From a virus, in the IMG/VR virus record IMGVR_UViG_2919367315_000001, positions 46 through 64,045 of that record: 64,000 nt of DNA; one strand, 5' to 3'. Shown piece by piece: positions 2,828 through 55,623 of this stretch (positions are counted from its first letter, which is position 1; each line of letters starts with the position of its first letter). The notes beneath the pieces are model-generated. The model was not told the DNA's origin and did no database searches. It was given only the letters and a program-made list of their open reading frames with translations. A program made the translations under genes and the position numbers.

Positions 2828-3491
2828 CTTCTTGATCCTCCTTCCGCGACAGAAAGTAAGAGATGCCAAAAGTGCTTGCCGACATAAGCAACAAAACAAA
2901 CGGATTGAGTTGGTATAAAAGCACCTCCGCTACGCAAATGGTAACGGCAGATAAGAGCGCACTAACTGCCACTGATCTATTGTCTTTTGAAAAATAACTC
3001 TCGCGTCTATTATCGTGGGGGGGCGCAACGATGAACGAAAATCCAGCATTATAAATTTTGAGAATAAACGATACAGCAAAACAAAGCGTTATGTATGTCA
3101 CTTGTAGGATATAGACCTGTAAAGTTGTGTTTTGCTGTAAAACTCCAGTCTGCATAATTCCTAAAAAGTTATAAAGGTAATAAACACCGACCTGTATTAT
3201 CGCATATGCACTAATCCCAGCCCCTAGTATAAACGCTGATAAATGTGTTTTAATCCCCAGTCCATAGCGAAAAAACAATATAAAAAGTATATATTGCAGA
3301 GGTAAATCTAGCTTAGGAAGATTAAAAATCACCCTCATAAAAAAAGAAATTATAGCTATCAATATCCCAAAACCAATAAGTCTTTTCCGGCGCTCAGCTA
3401 CTGGCAACATATATAATTTTAAGGAAAATACTATAACCGCAATAGTATCAAAGATACCAATACCAATATATGATAAAATATCTAACACCAT
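2778..3491 (-). CDS. ~7-TM membrane protein resembling an AgrC sensor domain, no kinase domain
   Basis: 237 aa, almost all hydrophobic helices; no H-box or GHKL motifs; first gene of the operon. Confidence 0.65.
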   Translation of the reverse strand: MVLDILSYIGIGIFDTIAVIVFSLKLYMLPVAERRKRLIGFGILIAIISFFMRVIFNLPKLDLPLQYILFILFFRYGLGIKTHLSAFILGAGISAYAIIQVGVYYLYNFLGIMQTGVLQQNTTLQVYILQVTYITLCFAVSFILKIYNAGFSFIVAPPHDNRRESYFSKDNRSVAVSALLSAVTICVAEVLLYQLNPFVLLLMSASTFGISYFLSRKEDQEDARKALEAHRNRNKKS

Positions 3492-16924: not shown

Positions 16925-17920
16925 TTATTTATCCCCTTTCGTTTTCAGGCCAGCAATTTTATTTTTAGCATCCCATGAAATCTCAGCTCCGTATGATTCC
17001 GCAATGGGCCGCAATTGTACATAAGATGTTCCTTCAACCAATTTCACAGACTGCAATTTACGATTGTTCAGATATGCGACCTTTTTGGCATTATCCCAAC
17101 GTAAAGGGATGCCAAGAGCATCCGCCAGCACGCGCAACGGAACGTGAGTCTTTCCATCAAACAGCAGAGCTTTACCTACATTCTCTCCGTTAATCTGGAA
17201 TGATCCATCCTTAACAGTCGCGTCTTCCTCTTTGGGTACGGATGGCTTCTTGCTGAACCGCGTCCGAAGCTCATCTGCCGTGCCGTCAAATTCATTCAAA
17301 TCGACTGGACCCGCTATGCCAGCCACCTTATGCGTGCCGGACGGCAGTGTACCACCAGCTGAGCCATCGCTATACTGCCAGAAATCCCAGCGCGACCATC
17401 CAGACGCGCCAGGTGGAACTTGTGTGGAGCTGTACCGGGCGATCCACAGCGGGTAATCTGATAAGCCGCTGAAATTACCGATGAACGAAGGATATGTGTA
17501 CACGATTGGTCGTACTCCAGTAAGCCGCTCAACCTCCTGCAAAAAAGCTTTGGCTACGGATGTAAGCGCCGATTTGCTCAAGCCGGACTTGTTGGACTCA
17601 TAATCCATTACAGGCGGCAGATCAAAAGCCGCGATGCCTCCTGCTGAATCAATGGCGCTCACGAAGTTTGCAGCTTCCTTTCGGGCATCCTCTGGCGTTA
17701 TGGCAGAGTCGTCTACATAGTGATAAGCTCCAACCAGGACTCCTACAGCTCGCGCAGCCTGCGCATTACCGATGAATGTCTTGTCCCGGTATGACTTTCC
17801 TTGACTGGCCTTGATGAAGGCAAACGATATGCCGTCTTCCTTCACTGCCTTCCAATCAATCTTTCCCTGATATCGGGATACATCTATCCCTTGCGCGTTA
17901 CCTTTCTTTCTTGCCTGCAT
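16925..17920 (-). CDS. GH25 muramidase endolysin with C-terminal cell-wall-binding (copper-amine-oxidase-N-like) repeats
   Basis: GIDVSRYQG...FAFIKASQG...GAYHY...PPVMDYE...WDFWQYS...VDLN. Confidence 0.95.
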   Translation of the reverse strand: MQARKKGNAQGIDVSRYQGKIDWKAVKEDGISFAFIKASQGKSYRDKTFIGNAQAARAVGVLVGAYHYVDDSAITPEDARKEAANFVSAIDSAGGIAAFDLPPVMDYESNKSGLSKSALTSVAKAFLQEVERLTGVRPIVYTYPSFIGNFSGLSDYPLWIARYSSTQVPPGASGWSRWDFWQYSDGSAGGTLPSGTHKVAGIAGPVDLNEFDGTADELRTRFSKKPSVPKEEDATVKDGSFQINGENVGKALLFDGKTHVPLRVLADALGIPLRWDNAKKVAYLNNRKLQSVKLVEGTSYVQLRPIAESYGAEISWDAKNKIAGLKTKGDK

Positions 17921-18353
17921 TTTCTCCGTCCCCTTCCTTCTCTCCACTTTTACTTTTTAGAACCTCTACAGCCTGCCGGATAATTGATGGGACAGGCGCA
18001 CCAATCCTACCGCCATTTTCAACTATCGACAGCAATTCATTTGCCAGATAAAAATAGGCGACTGCATCCCGGAATAAATGAGAGTCACCCAGTACGCCGT
18101 CTACCAAATGCGCTACGGCAACCATCGCAAAAATGAAGACCTTACGGGCAATACCGATCATGCCTACCTTGCTTTTTAAACCGGGACCAGTTCCCCTTTT
18201 TCCTTCTGTTCCTGCTGCAATTAATCCAGTCACATAATCAATTATTGTAAATGTAAGAAGTGCAGCCAGAGCAAATGACCATCCTCCAAAAAGATACGTT
18301 ATCGCGCTTCCACCAAAGGCAGCGCTAAATTTATAAATCTCCGACTTGTCCAC
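17898..18353 (-). CDS. Phage holin (Cp-1/toxin-secretion family)
   Basis: DYVTGLIAA...GIARK...YLANELLSIVEN...G.PVP; GTG start at 18353. Confidence 0.9.
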   Translation of the reverse strand: MDKSEIYKFSAAFGGSAITYLFGGWSFALAALLTFTIIDYVTGLIAAGTEGKRGTGPGLKSKVGMIGIARKVFIFAMVAVAHLVDGVLGDSHLFRDAVAYFYLANELLSIVENGGRIGAPVPSIIRQAVEVLKSKSGEKEGDGENAGKKER

Positions 18354-18495
18354 TTGCTTCCCTCGTTTCTTTTTACTCAATATAAGGCGAAAATCCATAA
18401 AAATAGCGCACTCAGAAGAGCACGCTCATGAACATTCTATTTCCCCCACTATTAAAAGTCCCCACTTATCCAACCTTCTTTCCCTGTCTCTCCGT

Positions 18496-18726: not shown

Positions 18727-19172
18727 CACCTCCTCAAGACGCAAAATAAGCCCCTGAGTTATCAGAGGCTTTCATACTTATATCTTAAATTGGTACTGTT
18801 GCTGTAACGCTGCGGATTTTAAAGGGAAACATAAATCAGTGAAAATAAAGTTGTAAACAGACCATACGTTTTCAAACTAACAGGAAGTATAGTTCCAATT
18901 ATGGTAATATGGGGAATAATCTTTTGTTTGAGTTAGGATCGAGTTACCCATGGATCTACTCATAATTATTTTAGTGATCGGTTTTATAACCATAGTAAGT
19001 TATCTCAGGGCAATTCATATTTCTCTTCAGCGAATTATAGAATATAAGCGTAAAGAAAATGAATAGCTATTTTTAGATGTGCCAAAGTGTTGGGTGACAT
19101 AGTTAAACCAACATAGAGATGATTGTTACATACTTGTTGGCTTAATCAATGACATATGGAGGTTAATAGGCA

Positions 19173-19475
19173 ATGGATAACTGGAATGATAAAAATACTT
19201 GGGAACAGAGTGAGATTCATATTGACCAACTGACAGGCGAGATTGATCAGATTCTACACAAGATAATTAACGGGCTAGAGGATCTAGGTATAGCATACGG
19301 TATCATTAGGGAATTTAGTTATAATCCTGAAGAGCCACCAACCTGGACTATTAGTATTGAGGAATCTAAAACCGTACTCACCTTGGATATCTTATTCCAA
19401 TATATGAGCCTGCATAGAAACATCGAGGATGCTTTGACTCATTTTATGCATGATCACTTTCCGTACTTTACTTAA
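19173..19475 (+). CDS. Acidic hypothetical protein (cargo)
   Basis: ORF with RBS ggagg, opposite to phage orientation. Confidence 0.75.
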   Translation: MDNWNDKNTWEQSEIHIDQLTGEIDQILHKIINGLEDLGIAYGIIREFSYNPEEPPTWTISIEESKTVLTLDILFQYMSLHRNIEDALTHFMHDHFPYFT

Positions 19476-19496
19476 TGAGAGTATAACGGTGAAGAC

Positions 19497-19526
19497 TATT
19501 CAACTAACGGGACATGATTGTTGAGC
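19497..19526 (+). repeat. Cassette-boundary palindrome (same family as 51859-54886)
   Basis: tattcaactaacgggacatgattgttgag; degenerate copy at 19101-19130. Confidence 0.55.
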
Positions 19527-19658
19527 AGGCGCTATAAGCCTACTCTTTGGGCATTAGGCGCTAATTTGACTATTTTTAAAATGGAGTTGTTTATCATTTT
19601 AAAGCATTATAAGATGGTTTCAGACATCGATGTACTTTAAAAAGAAAGAGAAGAAAAT

Positions 19659-20114
19659 ATGAAGGCTGAAATTGAAAAAATACCGTCTTGTAGAATTGCA
19701 TACATGAGACAGATTGGTCCTTATGGAATTGCAAATTCACAACTAATGGAGAAATTTAAATTCTGGGTTGAATCTAATGAATTATTTAATAATACGTCTA
19801 TTATCCTCGGTATTGCTCAAGATAATCCTGCATTTGTAAAACCGGAAAATTGTCGCTACGATGCGTGTTTGGTTGTTCCTGATGATTACTGTGTTAATGC
19901 TGATGAAGTAAGTCTGAGCAATATTAGTGGTGGAAGATACGCTGTTTTTAAGATAAATCATACCGCAGAAGCTGTTCAAAAGGCTTGGGTTGAAATATTC
20001 CTGGAGTTGGAAATTCAAAGGTTCAGCTTAGATGAAACCAGACCTATCTTGGAGCGATATACAATTGAACTTCTTAATAATCATTATTGCGAAATTTGCG
20101 TTCCGATTCATTAG
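19659..20114 (+). CDS. GyrI-like small-molecule-binding protein
   Basis: IAYMRQIGPYG...DNP...PENCRYDACL...GGRYAVF. Confidence 0.85.
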   Translation: MKAEIEKIPSCRIAYMRQIGPYGIANSQLMEKFKFWVESNELFNNTSIILGIAQDNPAFVKPENCRYDACLVVPDDYCVNADEVSLSNISGGRYAVFKINHTAEAVQKAWVEIFLELEIQRFSLDETRPILERYTIELLNNHYCEICVPIH

Positions 20115-48091: not shown

Positions 48092-49549
48092 TTATCTTTT
48101 TACTGCCACACTACCTATTGATGGAAGCATAACATGTGTATCTGGTTCCATTAAATATTCTCCGAACGTCAAAACAAAAGCGTCAGCTCTGTCTGGAGAC
48201 TTAAGCCCACGCTTTTTCATATCCTTCTTACTTTCAAGCAGCATTTTACCTTTACTGGTCATGTTCCATTTACGTGCTGTAAGTTGGGTTATTAGAACAT
48301 CGTCATCAGGCAATTGTAGAACGCTCATATCTCCATTTATGAAATTACTCATATTCTGTTCCAATTGATCCTTAATAGATGCCCACATTTCAGTAACTAG
48401 GTTCCCATAGTGCTCATCTAATGAAGAAGAGCCATTGTTAATTGGGATGATTTCATATGGTAGCCCTTCTTCAGCTACAATTTCATTAAGTCGATCTGTT
48501 ACGCCTCCGCCTACTCCGCTATCATCCACTCTTATTCTGATTCTGTTCAGATATGGATGAGAAACATGTAGCTCTTTAGCTAGATTAATCACCCACCCCG
48601 CAGTTACCATTGTGTCTTTCTTGAAATGATGATGTTCTCCTACAACTCTTGGCCCTATACCAGCAAACATTGAGGTTTCATCATCACCAAAACGCGCAAC
48701 GTCAACGCCCATAGTTAGCATATCTCCGCTGGGTTCCAGCTTCACTTCTTTAGCTGCGAATTCAGCCACTTCCAACGAAATAAATGTATCCGATTCTCCA
48801 CGGGGAAATTCACCTTCAACCCGGACTCTCCATACGTCACTGCCTTCACCATATTTACGCTTGAGCATGGCGATATTATCCTTGCTGGTTCTTGGACTGT
48901 CCAAGCAGGATACCTTGCGTGTTTTATAATCCGCTCTATCCTTATTGTGTGAATCATAAAAAACACCCGACGTTTTTGTCGGGTTACCGCACATCAATAT
49001 TTTATTAAACTCACCGGACAACGTACCTAAAATGGCCTCCATGATTGGATCGGCAACACCTGAAGCTTCATCCACAATGAAAAGCATGTAGTCCTCATGG
49101 AAGCCCTGCATATTCTCAGGCTTGGTAGCTGTCCGAGCTGTAGCAAACCAGCGTTCCTCATAGTTCTTCATGTAGATTTTGGTCTTAGTCCATTTGAGAA
49201 TCCGTTTTAATACCGGACTTTTAGATTGCCATTTATTAATCTCAGCCCATAACACGTCATGTAGTTGCTGTCTTGTAGGAGCTGTACAAATCACTTTTGG
49301 ATAAGGGAAACAGGACAGAAACCAAAGGGCTGTTGCAGCTTCCAGCCCAGTTTTTCCTACGCCTTGACCTGAACGTACTGAAACGCGCGGATTATTAGCT
49401 AAATCCATTAGAGTGCTTGCCTGCCAATCATCAGGATAGAACTTAAGCATTTCTTGACAGAACAATATAGGATTCTTACGGTACTCAGGAATCCGTATCT
49501 TGAATGCTTGAAGCCTCCGTTTCGTCTCCGGCGAGTCCTTCGTCTTCAT
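48092..49549 (-). CDS. terL: Terminase large subunit
   Basis: [10 protein letters not shown] Walker A, FIVDEASG Walker [15 protein letters not shown] and SPDRADA nuclease motifs. Confidence 0.95.
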
Positions 49550-50774
49550 TACCTACCACCGCCTCTACCCAATCATCAATTAGATCGTCTTCTGTATTGC
49601 CTTCTCCCGTGACCTTTGCTCTTTCAAGTTCAAGTTTCTCACGCTGCATCTTAAGTTTTTCGTCCTCAAGCATCCGTTTATGTTTGTCTGGAAGCAGATC
49701 CATGTATTTTGTCAGTACGTCCAAAGCCTTTGTTTTATCGTGAAGCTTAACACTTACGCCATCCTTGCCCTGCTTTACTTCTGAAACTAGCGTGCCGTCA
49801 ATTTCATCACTGTTTTTAAAAGCAACAAAATTATATCTATACTTCTTATTGTCTCCAGTGTCAGGATCAAAGACCGGTTCTCCTTCCAATCCAAGAACAT
49901 CTTCTTCCTTCTGACCAAATTCTACGTAATCTGTAATGTCTGCAAAAGCTATTTTCATGTACTCCATCAGTACGCGCTGAGCATTCAATCCTATCTCATC
50001 AATCATAGATTCCTTATGCTGCCGAATAATGTTTTGAATTTCAACTTTCTTCAACAGAGCGAAACCGATCTGATAGGCAGTTTTTTTACTGTATCCCGCC
50101 GCAATGGCTGACCTCGTGGCATTGAAGTCTCGAAGGTACTCATAAGTGAATATCCTTTGCTTAGGCGTTAATCCATCTTCATCAGGAATTTCAGGTTCCA
50201 GTTCTTCAACAACAATTGGAACGCTCTGTGCTTTTTTGGAACGTTCCATATTACCGGAGCGTTCCGATACCTTTTTCGGAGCGTTCCGTATTTCTGGAGT
50301 AGCAACTTTTAGTTCTTTAGAGAGCGCATCAACTGTAAGTGGGGTAGCATATACCTCTCTTGGCTTATCACCTTGATATGTACCAATGAATTTGCGCCGC
50401 TCCATTTCATCAATCAGTCGGGCCGCTCTGCTATAACCTATCCTCATTCTTCGCTGCAATAAAGAAACCGAGGCTTGTTTGGCCTCGGCAACAATTTGGA
50501 CAGCTTTTAGAAAGAGCTCATCCGAATATGATGTTGGTTCTTCATCTTCATTTGGAGGTTCCTTTTTTTGATCAGTTTCATTCCCATCGGAACCTTCCGT
50601 ATGTTTTGCTTCTCCAGCAAGTAAACTCTCCCACTTATCTTTTGCCTTCCATCCTCTTACCGTACCTTCAGATACACTAAGTTGAGAGGCTATATCTGTG
50701 AGACGTATGTTGCCGGAACTGGCTTTGTATAAATCAAATGCTTCGTCCCGTTTCGGATCTCTCTTTCGTCCCAT
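49485..50774 (-). CDS. terS: Terminase small subunit with internal FtsK-gamma domain
   Basis: N-terminal HTH ([12 protein letters not shown]); [25 protein letters not shown] (FtsK gamma); LTPKQRIF...[12 protein letters not shown] (Terminase_2). Confidence 0.9.
50218..50287. repeat. Four GGARCGYTC(C) repeats inside terS
   Basis: ggaacgctct 50218, ggaacgttcc 50238, ggagcgttcc 50256, ggagcgttcc 50278. Confidence 0.75.
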
Positions 50775-51602: not shown

Positions 51603-51893
51603 GTTTATTGCCTCCTAAAATAGTTTTAATTTGTTCCTGAATAAAGTGTAAATCCTTTCTACTCCGTACCTACTACGGATTTACATAGTTCCTACTGTCA
51701 GCAGAAGCTAAAGTATTAGGCTGAGTGTCTTTATTCCATGCAACCTTTCGAATTGTCATACCGCTAGACTCCATAAAATAAGTTTTAGACTGACCTTAGA
51801 AATTGGAACAGCGACAACCAAGGACGAGAAAATAAAGTCCTAGACTGTCGCTGTTCCATTGAACTAACGTTTCCCGTTAGCGTAATGAGACTG

Positions 51894-52142
51894 TCACTTT
51901 TTCAAAAGTGGTTTCCAGTTCTCATTACGCTCATCGTTAATCGTTGGCTTACGATTAACATGCCCTTGTAAATAAGCTTCTTGATATTGCCTTAGCGATT
52001 CAATATTTGCTCCCCCTTCATAATCGGGATCGTGATATTGAACAACATCATCCTCCCAAAAACAAATATCACAAATGTCATAGGTACCTGGTGGTTCATA
52101 ATCCAGTGTCTTATAACCACAGCATGGACATGCATATTTCAT
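51894..52142 (-). CDS. CPCC-family cysteine-rich protein
   Basis: CPCCGYKTL...YDICDICFWEDD...GGANIESL. Confidence 0.9.
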   Translation of the reverse strand: MKYACPCCGYKTLDYEPPGTYDICDICFWEDDVVQYHDPDYEGGANIESLRQYQEAYLQGHVNRKPTINDERNENWKPLLKK

Positions 52143-52487
52143 ATATAGTGACCTCCACATAAACAGTCAGCACTTTGTTGTGTTCGCTATATGATTAACC
52201 TAGCCTGCCCGTTATCTTAATGTAAAACGGAGCTGCTGCTGACAGCAAACTGCTCCGTTTAAATTTAAAATAATGCGTCCCAATCGTCTAATAATTGCCG
52301 CATATAAAAAATGAGTTCTTCGATGACAGAATAACTTCACGTCTTGAACAAAGGAGATTTATCTGAACCACCAATCAAATCAACTGTGAAAAATAAGGAG
52401 ATAAAGTGTCCTCTGTGGGCTATTGTTTTTACTGCACTTGAAGTGAGACGAACAAGTGAGGGGGCGTTCCCCTCACTTTATTCTTAA

Positions 52488-53309
52488 CTAGGAATAGTAT
52501 ACTTGTTCCACTTTATATAATGTATGCTCGATAGTTGGACAAAGTTCGGCATCTACTTTGTGAAATTTAACTCGAAAGTATAAACTTTTCAAGAAGTTCT
52601 TTATATTATTTTTTTGCTTAAAGGCATGAAGAAATTCTGGATTTTTCTCCACGTCACCAAAACTTTGGATCCATTTCTCTACATAGGTCTGACTAAGTAT
52701 TTTTCTATTTAAAACACTAATTACGGATTTCACCATTCTTTCATCTTCCCCATCTGAGTAAACTCGATCTGTAACGGTCATCTTTTCATAAACCAAATCG
52801 AGGATGGTTAAGAGGTCTTTTTTGTCCAGTTCGGGACATTGGGCCAAATCGTCCAAAGCATCTGCTGCATGAGCTATGGCATGAGCCCATCCTTTTTCTT
52901 CATCATACCCACGGTAATCTCGCTCCTTATGTATATTATAAAATACTTTCTCTTTGATCTGATGAATATGCTCTCTTGAGAGAAACGGTGATGCCCTATG
53001 CCTCATAAGGAGAAGTGGTATAACTAGCATAGAGAAAGATCTAGTGAAGACAGAGTCTGTATTTATTTCATCAAGCCTGAAAAGCAAATGGTTTTTATCC
53101 AAAACAACGGGTAAGAGTTGTTCCAGTTCGTTTACAGTTAGAGCATTACCAGGAATCCAATTGGATAAGGTTGTATAAATTAGCTCATCACGTAATTGGG
53201 CATCTAAAGAACCGATGTTATTCATCATCTCTTGTATCAATTGGAATGTATCGGAAGGTGCTTGGTAGCCATTTGCTTTTATCAATATCAACTTTTCTTT
53301 TAGATTCAT
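52488..53309 (-). CDS. DUF2785 family protein
   Basis: LRDELIY...VFTRSFS...DYRGYDEEKGWAHAIAHAADALD...DGEDERM. Confidence 0.85.
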   Translation of the reverse strand: MNLKEKLILIKANGYQAPSDTFQLIQEMMNNIGSLDAQLRDELIYTTLSNWIPGNALTVNELEQLLPVVLDKNHLLFRLDEINTDSVFTRSFSMLVIPLLLMRHRASPFLSREHIHQIKEKVFYNIHKERDYRGYDEEKGWAHAIAHAADALDDLAQCPELDKKDLLTILDLVYEKMTVTDRVYSDGEDERMVKSVISVLNRKILSQTYVEKWIQSFGDVEKNPEFLHAFKQKNNIKNFLKSLYFRVKFHKVDAELCPTIEHTLYKVEQVYYS

Positions 53310-53799
53310 TTTACACACTCCTACTATATTGCTTGCTATTAATTTCTTATTCATCTCTATTTTAGTAACAATCCAAGCTAGTTCATGTATTAACTGAACA
53401 TCATACTTTGAGCACCTTGTAATAGTAAGGAAATAACGAGCCTCCGGGCGATTTCACACTACACACTATGAATTCCTCCTTAAAATCACCAGCTAATTGG
53501 ATCGATTTCATAAATCGAAAGCCTGGATATTACTTTTAGTCACTGTAATAAAGGATTTGCCGCTCTAATAGCGAGAAACTAGTAGTTCCTGCCCTTAATA
53601 ATTTTTCACTCACTCTGTTCTCCTAATTTAATTACTTGAATAAATAGATTCCCACATATATGCCTTTCCCCTTTTAATTATCCTTTTGTATATTCAACTA
53701 TCCTACCCGTTACTTCAATGAAAAAAAGCAGCCCCTCATGAACTGCCCTACTGCTAGTCACTTCAACAATAGGATGAGTTCATTCAAGGGCTACCTCAT

Positions 53800-54069
53800 T
53801 TACCAAGTAATCCAACCACTCGTTCGTTTGTAACTGTGTAGGAGCTCGTATTCTTCACTACGCATCAGTCGTTTCATTTTTGTTCTATACAGACGATAAT
53901 CATCTTTTCTTGCTATTTTACATTCTTTGTTGTAATGAACACTCTTGATTCCTTTACGGAAATCCTTAAGCTTCTCTTTTCTTGGATCTTTGGGCTTATT
54001 ATTGATCTCCAGACTACGCTGTTTCTCATCTTCCCAGGATTGAATCTCTTCCCGTGTAAACATCTTCAT
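53800..54069 (-). CDS. Basic hypothetical protein
   Basis: Lys/Arg-rich ORF ending TSGWITW. Confidence 0.6.
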   Translation of the reverse strand: MKMFTREEIQSWEDEKQRSLEINNKPKDPRKEKLKDFRKGIKSVHYNKECKIARKDDYRLYRTKMKRLMRSEEYELLHSYKRTSGWITW

Positions 54070-54260
54070 CCCCGTTGTGCCGGGTTAGATTTTGGCATTT
54101 GAAGCCATGACCTTAGACACAACTAATAGAAGAAGATCTTCGGATTGAACATTAAATCACCTCTGATTTTATTCACCCTTATTTTAACATATATCCTGTC
54201 CGTTAGTTCAACAGGCGCCTATTCTTATGATACCATCGTGTTGCTTTAGTATCTTAATCT

Positions 54261-54731
54261 CTAGGTAACCTTTAAGGAAAAATGATAAAACGCATCGCCA
54301 CGAGATTGGTTCTCTACATCTTCATCCATCCACCATACCCCGTATGAATAAAAATATGTCCCTTTTTCTGTAGGAACTTGAAAACTATTTTCTTTCAATA
54401 AAACTTCTGTAAGCCTTCCTTCATAGAATTGCTTGACATGAAATTTATTCGGTTGGGGCTCATAATTCATAAGGAATTTTACAACATCACCAGGCTTTAC
54501 TGGAATCGGTTCTTTTCCTTTTAAAAGTTCAACTGGACCAGCTGAATCTACACATGATGTTGTCCAGCAGTATGTGCCGAGTTTTGTTTTGTACATTCGT
54601 TTATCAATCTGAATTTGAACCTTTGGTGGTTCCTCTCCCTCAAGGTCCTTATTTTTTGGCTGAACACCCGTGCAACCAACTATACATATAAGAGTTAGTG
54701 CCATAATGAATAACAATACTGTATTCTTCAA
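54261..54731 (-). CDS. Lipoprotein
   Basis: Lipobox IVGC; LGTYCWTTSCVD. Confidence 0.8.
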   Translation of the reverse strand: MKNTVLLFIMALTLICIVGCTGVQPKNKDLEGEEPPKVQIQIDKRMYKTKLGTYCWTTSCVDSAGPVELLKGKEPIPVKPGDVVKFLMNYEPQPNKFHVKQFYEGRLTEVLLKENSFQVPTEKGTYFYSYGVWWMDEDVENQSRGDAFYHFSLKVT

Positions 54732-54981
54732 ATAAACCCTCCTATCTTTATTCGATCCTAATTATTCAACGATAGAAGAAGTAAATTTGTTACAAATCAA
54801 ATTCATGAGATTAGTAAAATACTGTTTAATATGTTTTTTTCGGAATTAAGATTACTTGTTGAACTAAACTGCCCGTTAGCTTAATGAAGCATCCTCAAGA
54901 CTATTACTTATTTTTCAGTCTATAACTTTATTTTCTTCTGACACCTACAATAAAGACCGCAAAGGCTAAAGCCCTTGCGGT

Positions 54982-55623
54982 CTAATTTACTTCTGGCATC
55001 CTGAGTCCAATTTCACCTTCCTTGTTACGGCCCCGACCATAGTCGATGATCACAAAATCCAATGTTCGGTTGACTTTAAGACTTTTTGCTAAATTTTCTA
55101 TGACCTTGCGTCTTTTGTCAGCGAATGTTGTGGCCGATATACCATGAATCCCTTTTTTATACTCTCTACTCATATACTGTTGAGCTTTTAGATACTTCAT
55201 CCCATCTAGGAACAAAAGCTTTGCAGCAAGCCTTTCATGCGCATCTCTAATATTAGAGATTGCAAAATAGATATTGTTTGTAATAAGGAGATAGAACCTG
55301 TAATTTATGTGGCGCTGATCCTTGAGCAAAACAGTATTTGCCGTCACGTCTGCCGTCAGTTCTTGACCTGTTATCCTTTTTGCTACAGAGCCTTCGGCTG
55401 AAAGCAAGTCATACGCCGACATTCCGTTTTCAATCTGCTCCAGTGAATGTTCATAGTTTTTGATTACATCAATTAAGTCAGTATATTTGTTCAGCAGCCA
55501 CTTTGTTTTTCTTATATCTACTGCATCTACATCGTCAAAGAAGTTTACTTGGACTATTCTCTGTGTATCAGTAGACTCATCTTCAAGACTATTTGCTATA
55601 CACATTTGATTATCATTCATCAT
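54982..55623 (-). CDS. ArpU/RinA-like phage transcriptional activator
   Basis: TKWLLNKY...ERLAAKLLFLDG...TTFADKRRKVIENLA; position before packaging genes; terminator 54952-54983. Confidence 0.65.
   Translation of the reverse strand: MMNDNQMCIANSLEDESTDTQRIVQVNFFDDVDAVDIRKTKWLLNKYTDLIDVIKNYEHSLEQIENGMSAYDLLSAEGSVAKRITGQELTADVTANTVLLKDQRHINYRFYLLITNNIYFAISNIRDAHERLAAKLLFLDGMKYLKAQQYMSREYKKGIHGISATTFADKRRKVIENLAKSLKVNRTLDFVIIDYGRGRNKEGEIGLRMPEVN

Follow-up and report, generated by a model that had tools for sequence, protein, structure and literature searches.

The cassette array and its sites

The window analyzed here comprises 64,000 nucleotides (nt), positions 46-64,045 of virus record IMGVR_UViG_2919367315_000001, a single 71.7-kb record that is classed as a provirus with a completeness estimate of 100%. 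Between 51772 and 54949, on the minus strand that also carries the structural genes of the prophage, lies an array of open reading frames (ORFs) separated by copies of one conserved site. The five sites, s1 to s5, all share one orientation on the gene strand, and their spacings of 335, 1498, 492 and 674 bp delimit four units, each with a single intact minus-strand ORF and with the site upstream of its own gene. We treat these units as cassettes, a cassette being a core-to-core unit that consists of a right half-site, an ORF, often a terminator of its own, and the left half of the next site.

Each site spans about 30 bp, in which 11-bp inverted arms (ATTrAnCTAAC and GwTAGTTnAAT) flank an asymmetric center of 6-7 bp (GGGnAg). 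The logo of 111 distinct sites reads ATT-r-A-n-CTAAC, GGG-n-A-g(-c), G-w-TAG-TT-n-AA-T, and the asymmetric center is among its best-conserved parts. Two types can be distinguished: A-type sites have the center GGGCAG and an often degraded right arm, and Z-type sites have the center GGGAAAC within a near-perfect palindrome. To avoid circularity, significance was assessed with matrices built from 105 sites of other genomes only (foreign-site matrices), for which 100 Markov-simulated windows gave a chance rate of 0.01 matches at or above 12 bits. The array is made up as follows, read in the direction of the genes; bit scores of sites refer to the foreign-site matrix unless stated otherwise.

54888-54949, minus strand: leader, between the terminator of the 213-amino-acid (aa) gene and s5
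54856-54887, minus strand: site s5, first of the array, A-type (TCATTAAGCTAACGGGCAG...), 47.2 bits
54261-54731, minus strand: cargo of cassette 1, a 156-aa lipoprotein-like protein, YtkA-like by features
54183-54214, minus strand: site s4, degenerate A-type, below 12 bits, 17.5 bits with model R1
53800-54069, minus strand: cargo of cassette 2, an 89-aa basic protein of unknown function
53725-53749, minus strand: intrinsic terminator of cassette 2, abutting s3
53690-53721, minus strand: site s3, A-type, 39.2 bits
52488-53354, minus strand: cargo of cassette 3, a DUF2785 protein of 288 aa (1.7e-52)
52224-52260, minus strand: terminator-like hairpin of cassette 3, abutting s2
52192-52223, minus strand: site s2, A-type, 22.1 bits
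51894-52160, minus strand: cargo of cassette 4, a Cys-rich CPCC protein of 88 aa (2.2e-22)
51857-51888, minus strand: site s1, last of the array, Z-type, near-perfect palindrome CTAACG-GGAAA-CGTTAG, 50.9 bits, -6.2 kcal/mol
51772-51856, minus strand: trailer, a long hairpin (51804-51858) followed by about 30 nt

A first-pass annotation of this DNA had described five palindromic sites in one orientation, delimiting units of 0.34, 1.5, 0.49 and 0.67 kb with one intact gene each, several of the sites being next to hairpins such as that at 51804-51858. All five sites were found at these places, four of them scoring 22-51 bits with the foreign-site profile, and the unit lengths and gene counts agree with the spacings given above. 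The hairpin is likewise real: the 118 nt from 51772 to 51889 that contain it have a folding energy of -24.4 kcal/mol (z = -7). The palindromic character is strong in s1, while s2 to s5 retain the left arm and center and have a degraded right arm. Two further sites lie outside the described range, at 18869-18900 and 19496-19527. Site s4 reaches its 17.5 bits (E = 9e-4) with a model whose training alignment includes s4 itself. It is a real boundary, because cassette homologies begin or end there (query 783-810) and because the contig of one strain joins s4 to s5.

The symmetry of the arms was examined for signs of a folded structure. Paired positions amount to 77.1%, compared with 76.9% in column shuffles, of which 183 of 500 were as high, and arm covariation is thus absent. 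As single strands, s2 to s5 fold at 0 to -0.8 kcal/mol (z about 0) and form no hairpin. Taken together, these results indicate that the symmetry reflects conserved sequence on both arms rather than a folded structure, as would be expected where two protein subunits bind double-stranded DNA. A search of the sites against Rfam matched no family and, given also the missing covariation, an RNA element was rejected. A sigma-70 scan found no promoter on the gene strand overlapping any site, and readings as SigW/ECF, SigH, SigB, SigE/K or SPO1 late promoters were rejected, as none of these consensus sequences, compared by eye, fits all copies.

At s2 and s3, the intrinsic terminator of the upstream gene runs directly up to the site, and at s5 about 65 nt separate the site from the terminator before it. 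Site s1 and the trailer hairpin form a dispersed repeat (query 3113-3229) with several copies in many Paenibacillus genomes, usually where an array ends; it may serve as array terminus, terminator or small RNA. Relative to related phages, some 47 bases are additional in the window at 51725-51772, and the alignments on either side overlap by 24 nt, suggesting a minor local duplication or insertion within the trailer. Literature searches on DUF2785 and CPCC proteins and atlas look-ups gave no function for the cargo.

Gain, loss and re-ordering of cassettes

Related prophages were retrieved through the terminase gene and the 213-aa gene adjoining the array. They are proviruses of the Paenibacillus polymyxa group, namely of P. 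peoriae, P. ottowii, P. brasilensis and P. farraposensis. Four of them have an empty locus, in which no more than about 15 nt separate the terminator of the 213-aa gene from sequence corresponding to window position ~51684, and six carry an array with one to three different cargo ORFs. Homology to the window is lost within s5 (54858-54867) and returns within s1 (51881-51889), with the breaks falling in the TAACGGG core. In the array-bearing relatives, the first site always keeps the left half TCATTAAGCTAACGGGCAG, and the last site always keeps the right half ACGTTAGTTCAATGG together with the hairpin. The left half of s5 is common to the related phages and its right half travels with cassette 1, and at the other end the right half of s1 and the trailer are the common part. 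The leader at 54888-54949 was found in array-bearing relatives only, and it is repeated elsewhere together with the left half of s5 (query 55-139).

Differences of single cassettes were also found between strains. For this comparison, public assemblies (X2, X4, X6 and X7; G and L labels below denote sampled genomes and loci) were compared with the window, bearing in mind that assembled contigs cannot show rare molecules. Assembly X2 has the same array with three differences. In X4, position 51880 is joined to 52200 and cassette 4, with the CPCC gene, is missing, the remaining 3.4 kb showing 28 differences. X6 joins 54192 to 54862, that is s4 to s5, and lacks cassette 1 with the lipoprotein gene; the same assembly has a second contig with the empty locus, joining 51686 to 54949. 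A contig of X7 joins 54879 back to 52216 across seven shared letters (CCCGTTA), so that cassette 3 stands directly before cassette 1. Such cassette differences between near-identical strains indicate recent activity in the polymyxa group.

The individual cassettes recur elsewhere as well. Cassette 1 is 92-96% identical at G188:C1:2296096-2296800 and G187:C1:5696216-5696804, cassette 2 is 95-97% identical at G187:C1:3972590-3973117 and G188:C1:3197790-3198289, and cassette 4 is 95% identical at G187:C1:4613975-4614366 and G186:C1:5911215-5911607. In these three genomes, cassettes 1, 2 and 4 lie in unlinked places with other neighbors, and the homology ends in the sites. More distant copies of cassette 2 (76-88% identical) occur in about 25 further genomes, and cassette 3 has gene-level homologues of 70-90% identity in many Paenibacillus genomes and one of 97% in G168:C15. 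In the chromosome of a fourth species (G005, locus L035), a segment 91.5% identical to the window covers the 3' portion of cassette 2 with its terminator and the s3 left half, and this match stops at the site core. The site at L056:3590 is a hybrid, with the left half of s3 and a right half like that of s5. As judged from these sequence comparisons, cassettes are shown to be gained, lost, re-ordered and shared between phage and chromosome, and the break always falls in or next to the TAACGGG core. The first-pass annotation had asked whether gene content varies exactly at the sites, and the answer is positive in related prophages, in near-identical strains and in other species.

A second, smaller array lies at 18.9-20.2 kb, between a Rha-like gene and the lysis genes and on the opposite strand to the main array.

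18869-18900, plus strand: first site, 18.6 bits (R1), 15.7 bits (foreign-site matrix)
19173-19475, plus strand: cargo, a 100-aa protein of unknown function
19496-19527, plus strand: second site, 17.7 bits (R1), 20.6 bits (foreign-site matrix)
19659-20114, plus strand: cargo, a GyrI-like small-molecule-binding protein

The boundaries of this array behave in the same way. Homology of the lysis region to other prophages stops at the 18869-18900 site (query 424-496), and cassettes homologous to the unit of the 100-aa cargo end at the core of the 19496 site (query 1112-1123). Homologues of the GyrI-like cargo (91-94% in G188, G168, G002 and G213) begin just past the site core and end behind a terminator. 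The prophage thus has six cassettes in two arrays. The GyrI-like protein also matches the Pfam family Cass2, 'integron-associated effector binding protein' (1.7e-13), a type of cargo that is typical of classical integron cassettes.

The site family in Paenibacillaceae and a candidate recombinase

A profile scan of Paenibacillus genomes, as suggested in the first-pass annotation together with a search for a linked recombinase, revealed both arrays and, in other genomes, a linked recombinase of 280 aa. The site model matches 98 of 151 sampled Paenibacillaceae genomes (E <= 1e-3), with up to 44 matches per genome among the at most 47 candidates scored for each. Matches occur in clusters, each of them confined to one strand. 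Chromosomal junctions have the order gene stop, Z-type site, about 10 nt, conserved terminator, abutting A-type site and next gene, and this composite junction was also seen in a related phage. Some chromosomal cassettes hold their gene on the opposite strand, and in two cases a chromosomal array without a recombinase in its vicinity is placed between genes of housekeeping type. The chromosomal cargo includes GNAT, NUDIX, SDR and peptidase S51 proteins, aminoglycoside 3-N-acetyltransferase and several DUFs.

Among individual loci, a contig of P. qinlingensis (G004, C53) carries the aminoglycoside 3-N-acetyltransferase cassette at L033:9912-10709 (Antibiotic_NAT, 2.1e-53), with an IS110-family transposase at the end of the same array (L033:15601-16866). 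An unrelated prophage of P. ottowii (G002, contig C39, L037:5190-8931) has a single glyoxalase cassette, consisting of an A site, the gene, a Z site and a terminator, between a 520-aa gene at the terminase position and an SPP1-type portal gene. On G005:C1 (Paenibacillus sp. QZ-Y1), sites lie on the plus strand at 1.0-3.87 Mb, with a dense zone at 3.56-3.87 Mb, and on the minus strand at 5.15-5.89 Mb, an orientation that may follow replication or simply gene direction.

The 280-aa protein is a Xer-like recombinase whose gene lies inside the arrays of site-rich genomes, on the site strand; one copy is at L040:10157-10999. In 11 of 16 intact copies (10 genomes), a site is found 59-78 nt upstream of its start codon, and in five an A-type variant follows 79-92 nt behind the gene. 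Counting fragments and ignoring phylogeny, the protein occurs in 25 of the 151 genomes, including 6 of the 8 with at least 24 sites; by the same tally it is present in 16 of 33 genomes with at least 6 sites and in 9 of the 118 others. It matches PF00589 at E = 1e-33 to 1e-35, has an N-terminal SAM-like domain, and shows the catalytic residues R-K-H-R-H-Y in an alignment inspected by eye. The best solved relatives are XerC-like 4a8e and XerD 1a0p. Scores fall below the XerC, XerD and XerA equivalog cut-offs, so that the protein is a paralogue rather than XerC, XerD or XerA themselves, yet it matches these models better than the integron-integrase model (90.8 bits against a cut-off of 265), and it is devoid of an IntI-type insert. 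Based on this genomic association, there is good evidence for a tie between the site family and a Xer-like recombinase, and the 280-aa protein is the best candidate for the enzyme that would exchange the sites.

Two other Xer-like proteins were considered and rejected as dedicated enzymes. A 323-aa protein has one orthologue in each of G001-G005, and one copy stands beside a site in P. peoriae. Present in 107 of 151 genomes, it is near-core, and its association with the sites is weak (76/22/31/22, odds ratio 2.45, p = 0.02, uncorrected); several site-rich genomes lack it, and many genomes have the protein and no sites. A 301-aa recombinase of the P. ottowii prophage lies about 2.6 kb from the glyoxalase cassette, has no site beside it, and is 27% identical to the 280-aa enzyme.

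Interpretation, known systems and genomic context

The two-armed 11-6/7-11 layout, the asymmetric center, the re-assortment of half-sites and the crossover within 7-10 bases together argue for site-specific tyrosine recombination. The only tyrosine recombinase of the 71.7-kb record is a classical arm-binding phage integrase past the end of the window, which bears out the first-pass statement that the window itself has none and fits an action in trans. We consider it probable, on these comparative grounds, that the sites are recombination-type sites and that the single-gene cassettes are moved by a trans-acting Xer-like tyrosine recombinase. The exchange would be conservative and site-specific, with one recombinase monomer on each arm and strand exchange across the conserved center, comparable to that at dif or lox sites. 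Each excised cassette would be a circle bearing a single hybrid site, able to insert again at any site in any array. In site-rich genomes the 280-aa candidate recombinase is itself a cassette. The phage would draw on the cassette pool of its host and carry cassettes between strains and species. In its broadest form, for which the arguments appear to us evenly balanced, the proposal is that Paenibacillaceae have a cassette system of their own, integron-like, with double-stranded sites of the dif/lox type and a short Xer-like recombinase, and that temperate phages carry arrays without the recombinase, load and unload them via the host enzyme, and ferry them between strains and species.

Several observations weigh against this interpretation. 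The 280-aa recombinase was found neither in the phage record nor in G001-G005 (P. peoriae, P. ottowii and P. farraposensis among them), nor, with a single-protein query, in viral contigs. No convincing recombinase stands beside the sites in G186-G188, and the site-rich genomes G037 and G144 have no 280-aa recombinase at E <= 1e-40. The centers of A- and Z-type sites differ in length by one base, which is awkward for strand exchange between the types. The empty locus has no site at all, which implies that leader, array and trailer came into the phage together, by a different route. A terminator is present in every junction, and part of the conserved junction is therefore regulatory. Finally, the support for recombination consists of assembled contigs and sequence comparison.

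The main rival explanation is modeled on the PeSL cassettes of T4-type phages. There, too, a conserved motif beside a stem-loop terminator bounds small accessory ORFs; it is precisely at these motifs that shuffling between close relatives takes place, and mini-circles have been demonstrated (PMC2839356, PMC4122927). Each junction would then be a terminator-promoter module, and cassettes would be shuffled by general or phage homologous recombination, as in T4-type hyperplastic regions, with no dedicated recombinase. That PeSLs mediate such shuffling and yield mini-circles (PMC2839356), that intrinsic terminators adjoin s2 and s3 and precede s5 by some 65 nt, and that no dedicated recombinase was found in the polymyxa group searched all speak for this explanation, as does the chromosomal junction of Z site, conserved terminator and A site, which at about 100 bp is long enough for homologous exchange. 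However, junctions within the phage share the ~28-bp site alone and differ in their terminators. Only seven letters are shared at the X7 joint, and s5 and s2 are identical over at most 10 bases in a row, far less than homologous recombination normally requires. PeSLs are sigma-70 promoters with terminators and recombine by homology, whereas the scan of the gene strand showed no sigma-70-type promoter overlapping any of the present sites, which also occur 3' of genes (Z-type sites lie upstream of terminators, at the 3' ends of genes), exchange within a 7-10-base core, and are shared with host chromosomes across a bacterial family. The Xer-like recombinase gene, moreover, is tied to the sites at a constant spacing. 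On balance, we regard the PeSL-like explanation as unlikely.

A further possibility, to which we also assign a low probability, retains the cassette logic and replaces the enzyme, with the exchange being performed by the housekeeping XerC/XerD homologues or by the 323-aa Xer-like paralogue. This would correspond to the plasmid-borne dif modules (pdif) of Acinetobacter, for which a Xer-type recombinase has been proposed to act in trans (PMC6449649, PMC13141974, PMC7399989). In both systems, accessory modules that move between replicons are bordered by a ~28-bp site of 11-6-11 layout, and the two 11-bp arms and 6-bp center of dif are recognizable in the logo of 111 sites. Activity in the polymyxa group, where the 280-aa enzyme was not found, needs some resident recombinase, and the 323-aa protein is present in G001-G005 and in 107 of the 151 genomes, in P. 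peoriae beside a site. Against this stand its weak association with sites (odds ratio 2.45, p = 0.02, uncorrected) and the many genomes that have the protein and no sites. A dif pattern of the Bacillus subtilis type had no match at up to three mismatches in four genomes, and this search thus yielded no dif with which the sites could be compared. The arrays also differ from pdif modules in that their sites are direct and on one strand per array, whereas pdif sites alternate between XerC-XerD and XerD-XerC, in that they are chromosomal and phage-borne rather than plasmid-borne, and in that some have a recombinase gene embedded in them.

The last alternative, a protein operator, an alternative-sigma promoter or a repeat of the repetitive extragenic palindromic (REP) or miniature inverted-repeat transposable element (MITE) kind that piles up in variable regions and so only looks like a cassette boundary, is already disfavored and very improbable: each window site does lie upstream of a gene and follows gene direction at both loci, s1 with its hairpin trailer is itself a dispersed repeat, and an IS110 element stands at the end of one array, but homology breaks in the core, half-sites re-assort, sites also follow genes and flank opposite-strand genes, cargo functions are unrelated, and the missing covariation, the A-type sites without hairpin and the lack of an Rfam match are not REP-like. 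The first-pass annotation had named an operator motif as one of the outcomes that would overturn its proposal, and this outcome is contradicted by sites 3' of genes and before terminators, by cassettes with reversed genes and by the re-assorted half-sites.

Integrons are the textbook device for gene capture and shuffling. The arrays described here resemble integrons, above all sedentary chromosomal ones and CALINs, clusters of attC sites without an integrase, in their co-oriented and mostly single-gene cassettes with a boundary inside a short conserved core, in the sharing and re-ordering of cassettes between arrays, and in the flavor of their cargo (acetyltransferases, NUDIX, GyrI/Cass2, DUFs). 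As in integrons, cassettes are gained, lost and re-ordered at boundaries that fall within the site core. The occurrence of arrays without a neighboring recombinase is a feature in common with CALINs, and the association of a tyrosine recombinase with the sites is one in common with integrons. Three defining features of integrons are absent, namely IntI, folded attC sites and promoterless cassettes driven by the promoter Pc. In place of IntI, the candidate is a short Xer-like protein below the integron-integrase cut-offs. The sites are sequence-conserved dyads of about 30 bp that do not fold, in contrast to attC sites, which are conserved in structure and recombine as folded single strands. The junctions carry terminators rather than belonging to a single Pc-driven array; no equivalent of attI or Pc was identified, and intrinsic terminators stand between the cassettes. 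The first-pass proposal of an integron-like capture system acting in trans is thus upheld in its cassette logic and not in any closer identity with integrons, given that neither attC-type folded sites nor IntI are present.

Complete integrons were not found in Firmicutes, the phylum to which the host belongs (PMC4889954). Phages have been reported to contain attC sites and parts of integrons (PMC9892861); these are classical attC/IntI elements and do not belong to the Paenibacillus site family. Phage morons are similar as accessory genes with their own terminators inserted between phage modules, and differ in that no common boundary site defines them. In the library searched, no paper describing the Paenibacillus cassette system was found. 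What is new here is that a complete prophage carries such arrays, that single cassettes are gained, lost and re-ordered at the level of strains, and that phage and chromosomal arrays have cassettes in common. The system looks like an integron counterpart of Gram-positive bacteria, one that also travels in a virus. If this is true, a large Gram-positive family would have a cassette system with another type of site and a Xer-like enzyme, meaning that the strategy arose more than once, and a simple double-stranded site would be available for study and for genetic tools. Carriage by a prophage would add a route of transfer, in which cassettes move along with the virus and can be swapped between it and arrays on chromosomes. 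The aminoglycoside acetyltransferase cassette in a chromosomal array implies that the system can move resistance-type genes.

Within the prophage, accessory genes are placed between a putative regulator and terS, and beside the lysis genes. A search of deposited phage genomes for similar DNA gave no match. The genes around the two arrays are listed below.

54982-55623, minus strand: conserved phage gene of 213 aa, upstream of the main array, with its own terminator at 54954-54983
49485-50774, minus strand: small terminase, 429 aa (Terminase_2 and Phage_terminase N-terminus)
17898-18398: holin
16925-17947: GH25 lysin

The 213-aa gene stands outside the cassette system, because phages with the empty locus carry the same gene. 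Its product matches no Pfam family, and its language-model features lie near those of phage DUF1492, DUF722 and Sigma70_r4 proteins (scores 0.89-0.92). It is possibly a late-transcription activator placed before terS, which we offer as a lead only. The small terminase contains an FtsK-gamma winged-helix domain (PF09397, 1.4e-25), which confirms a separate note of the first-pass annotation.

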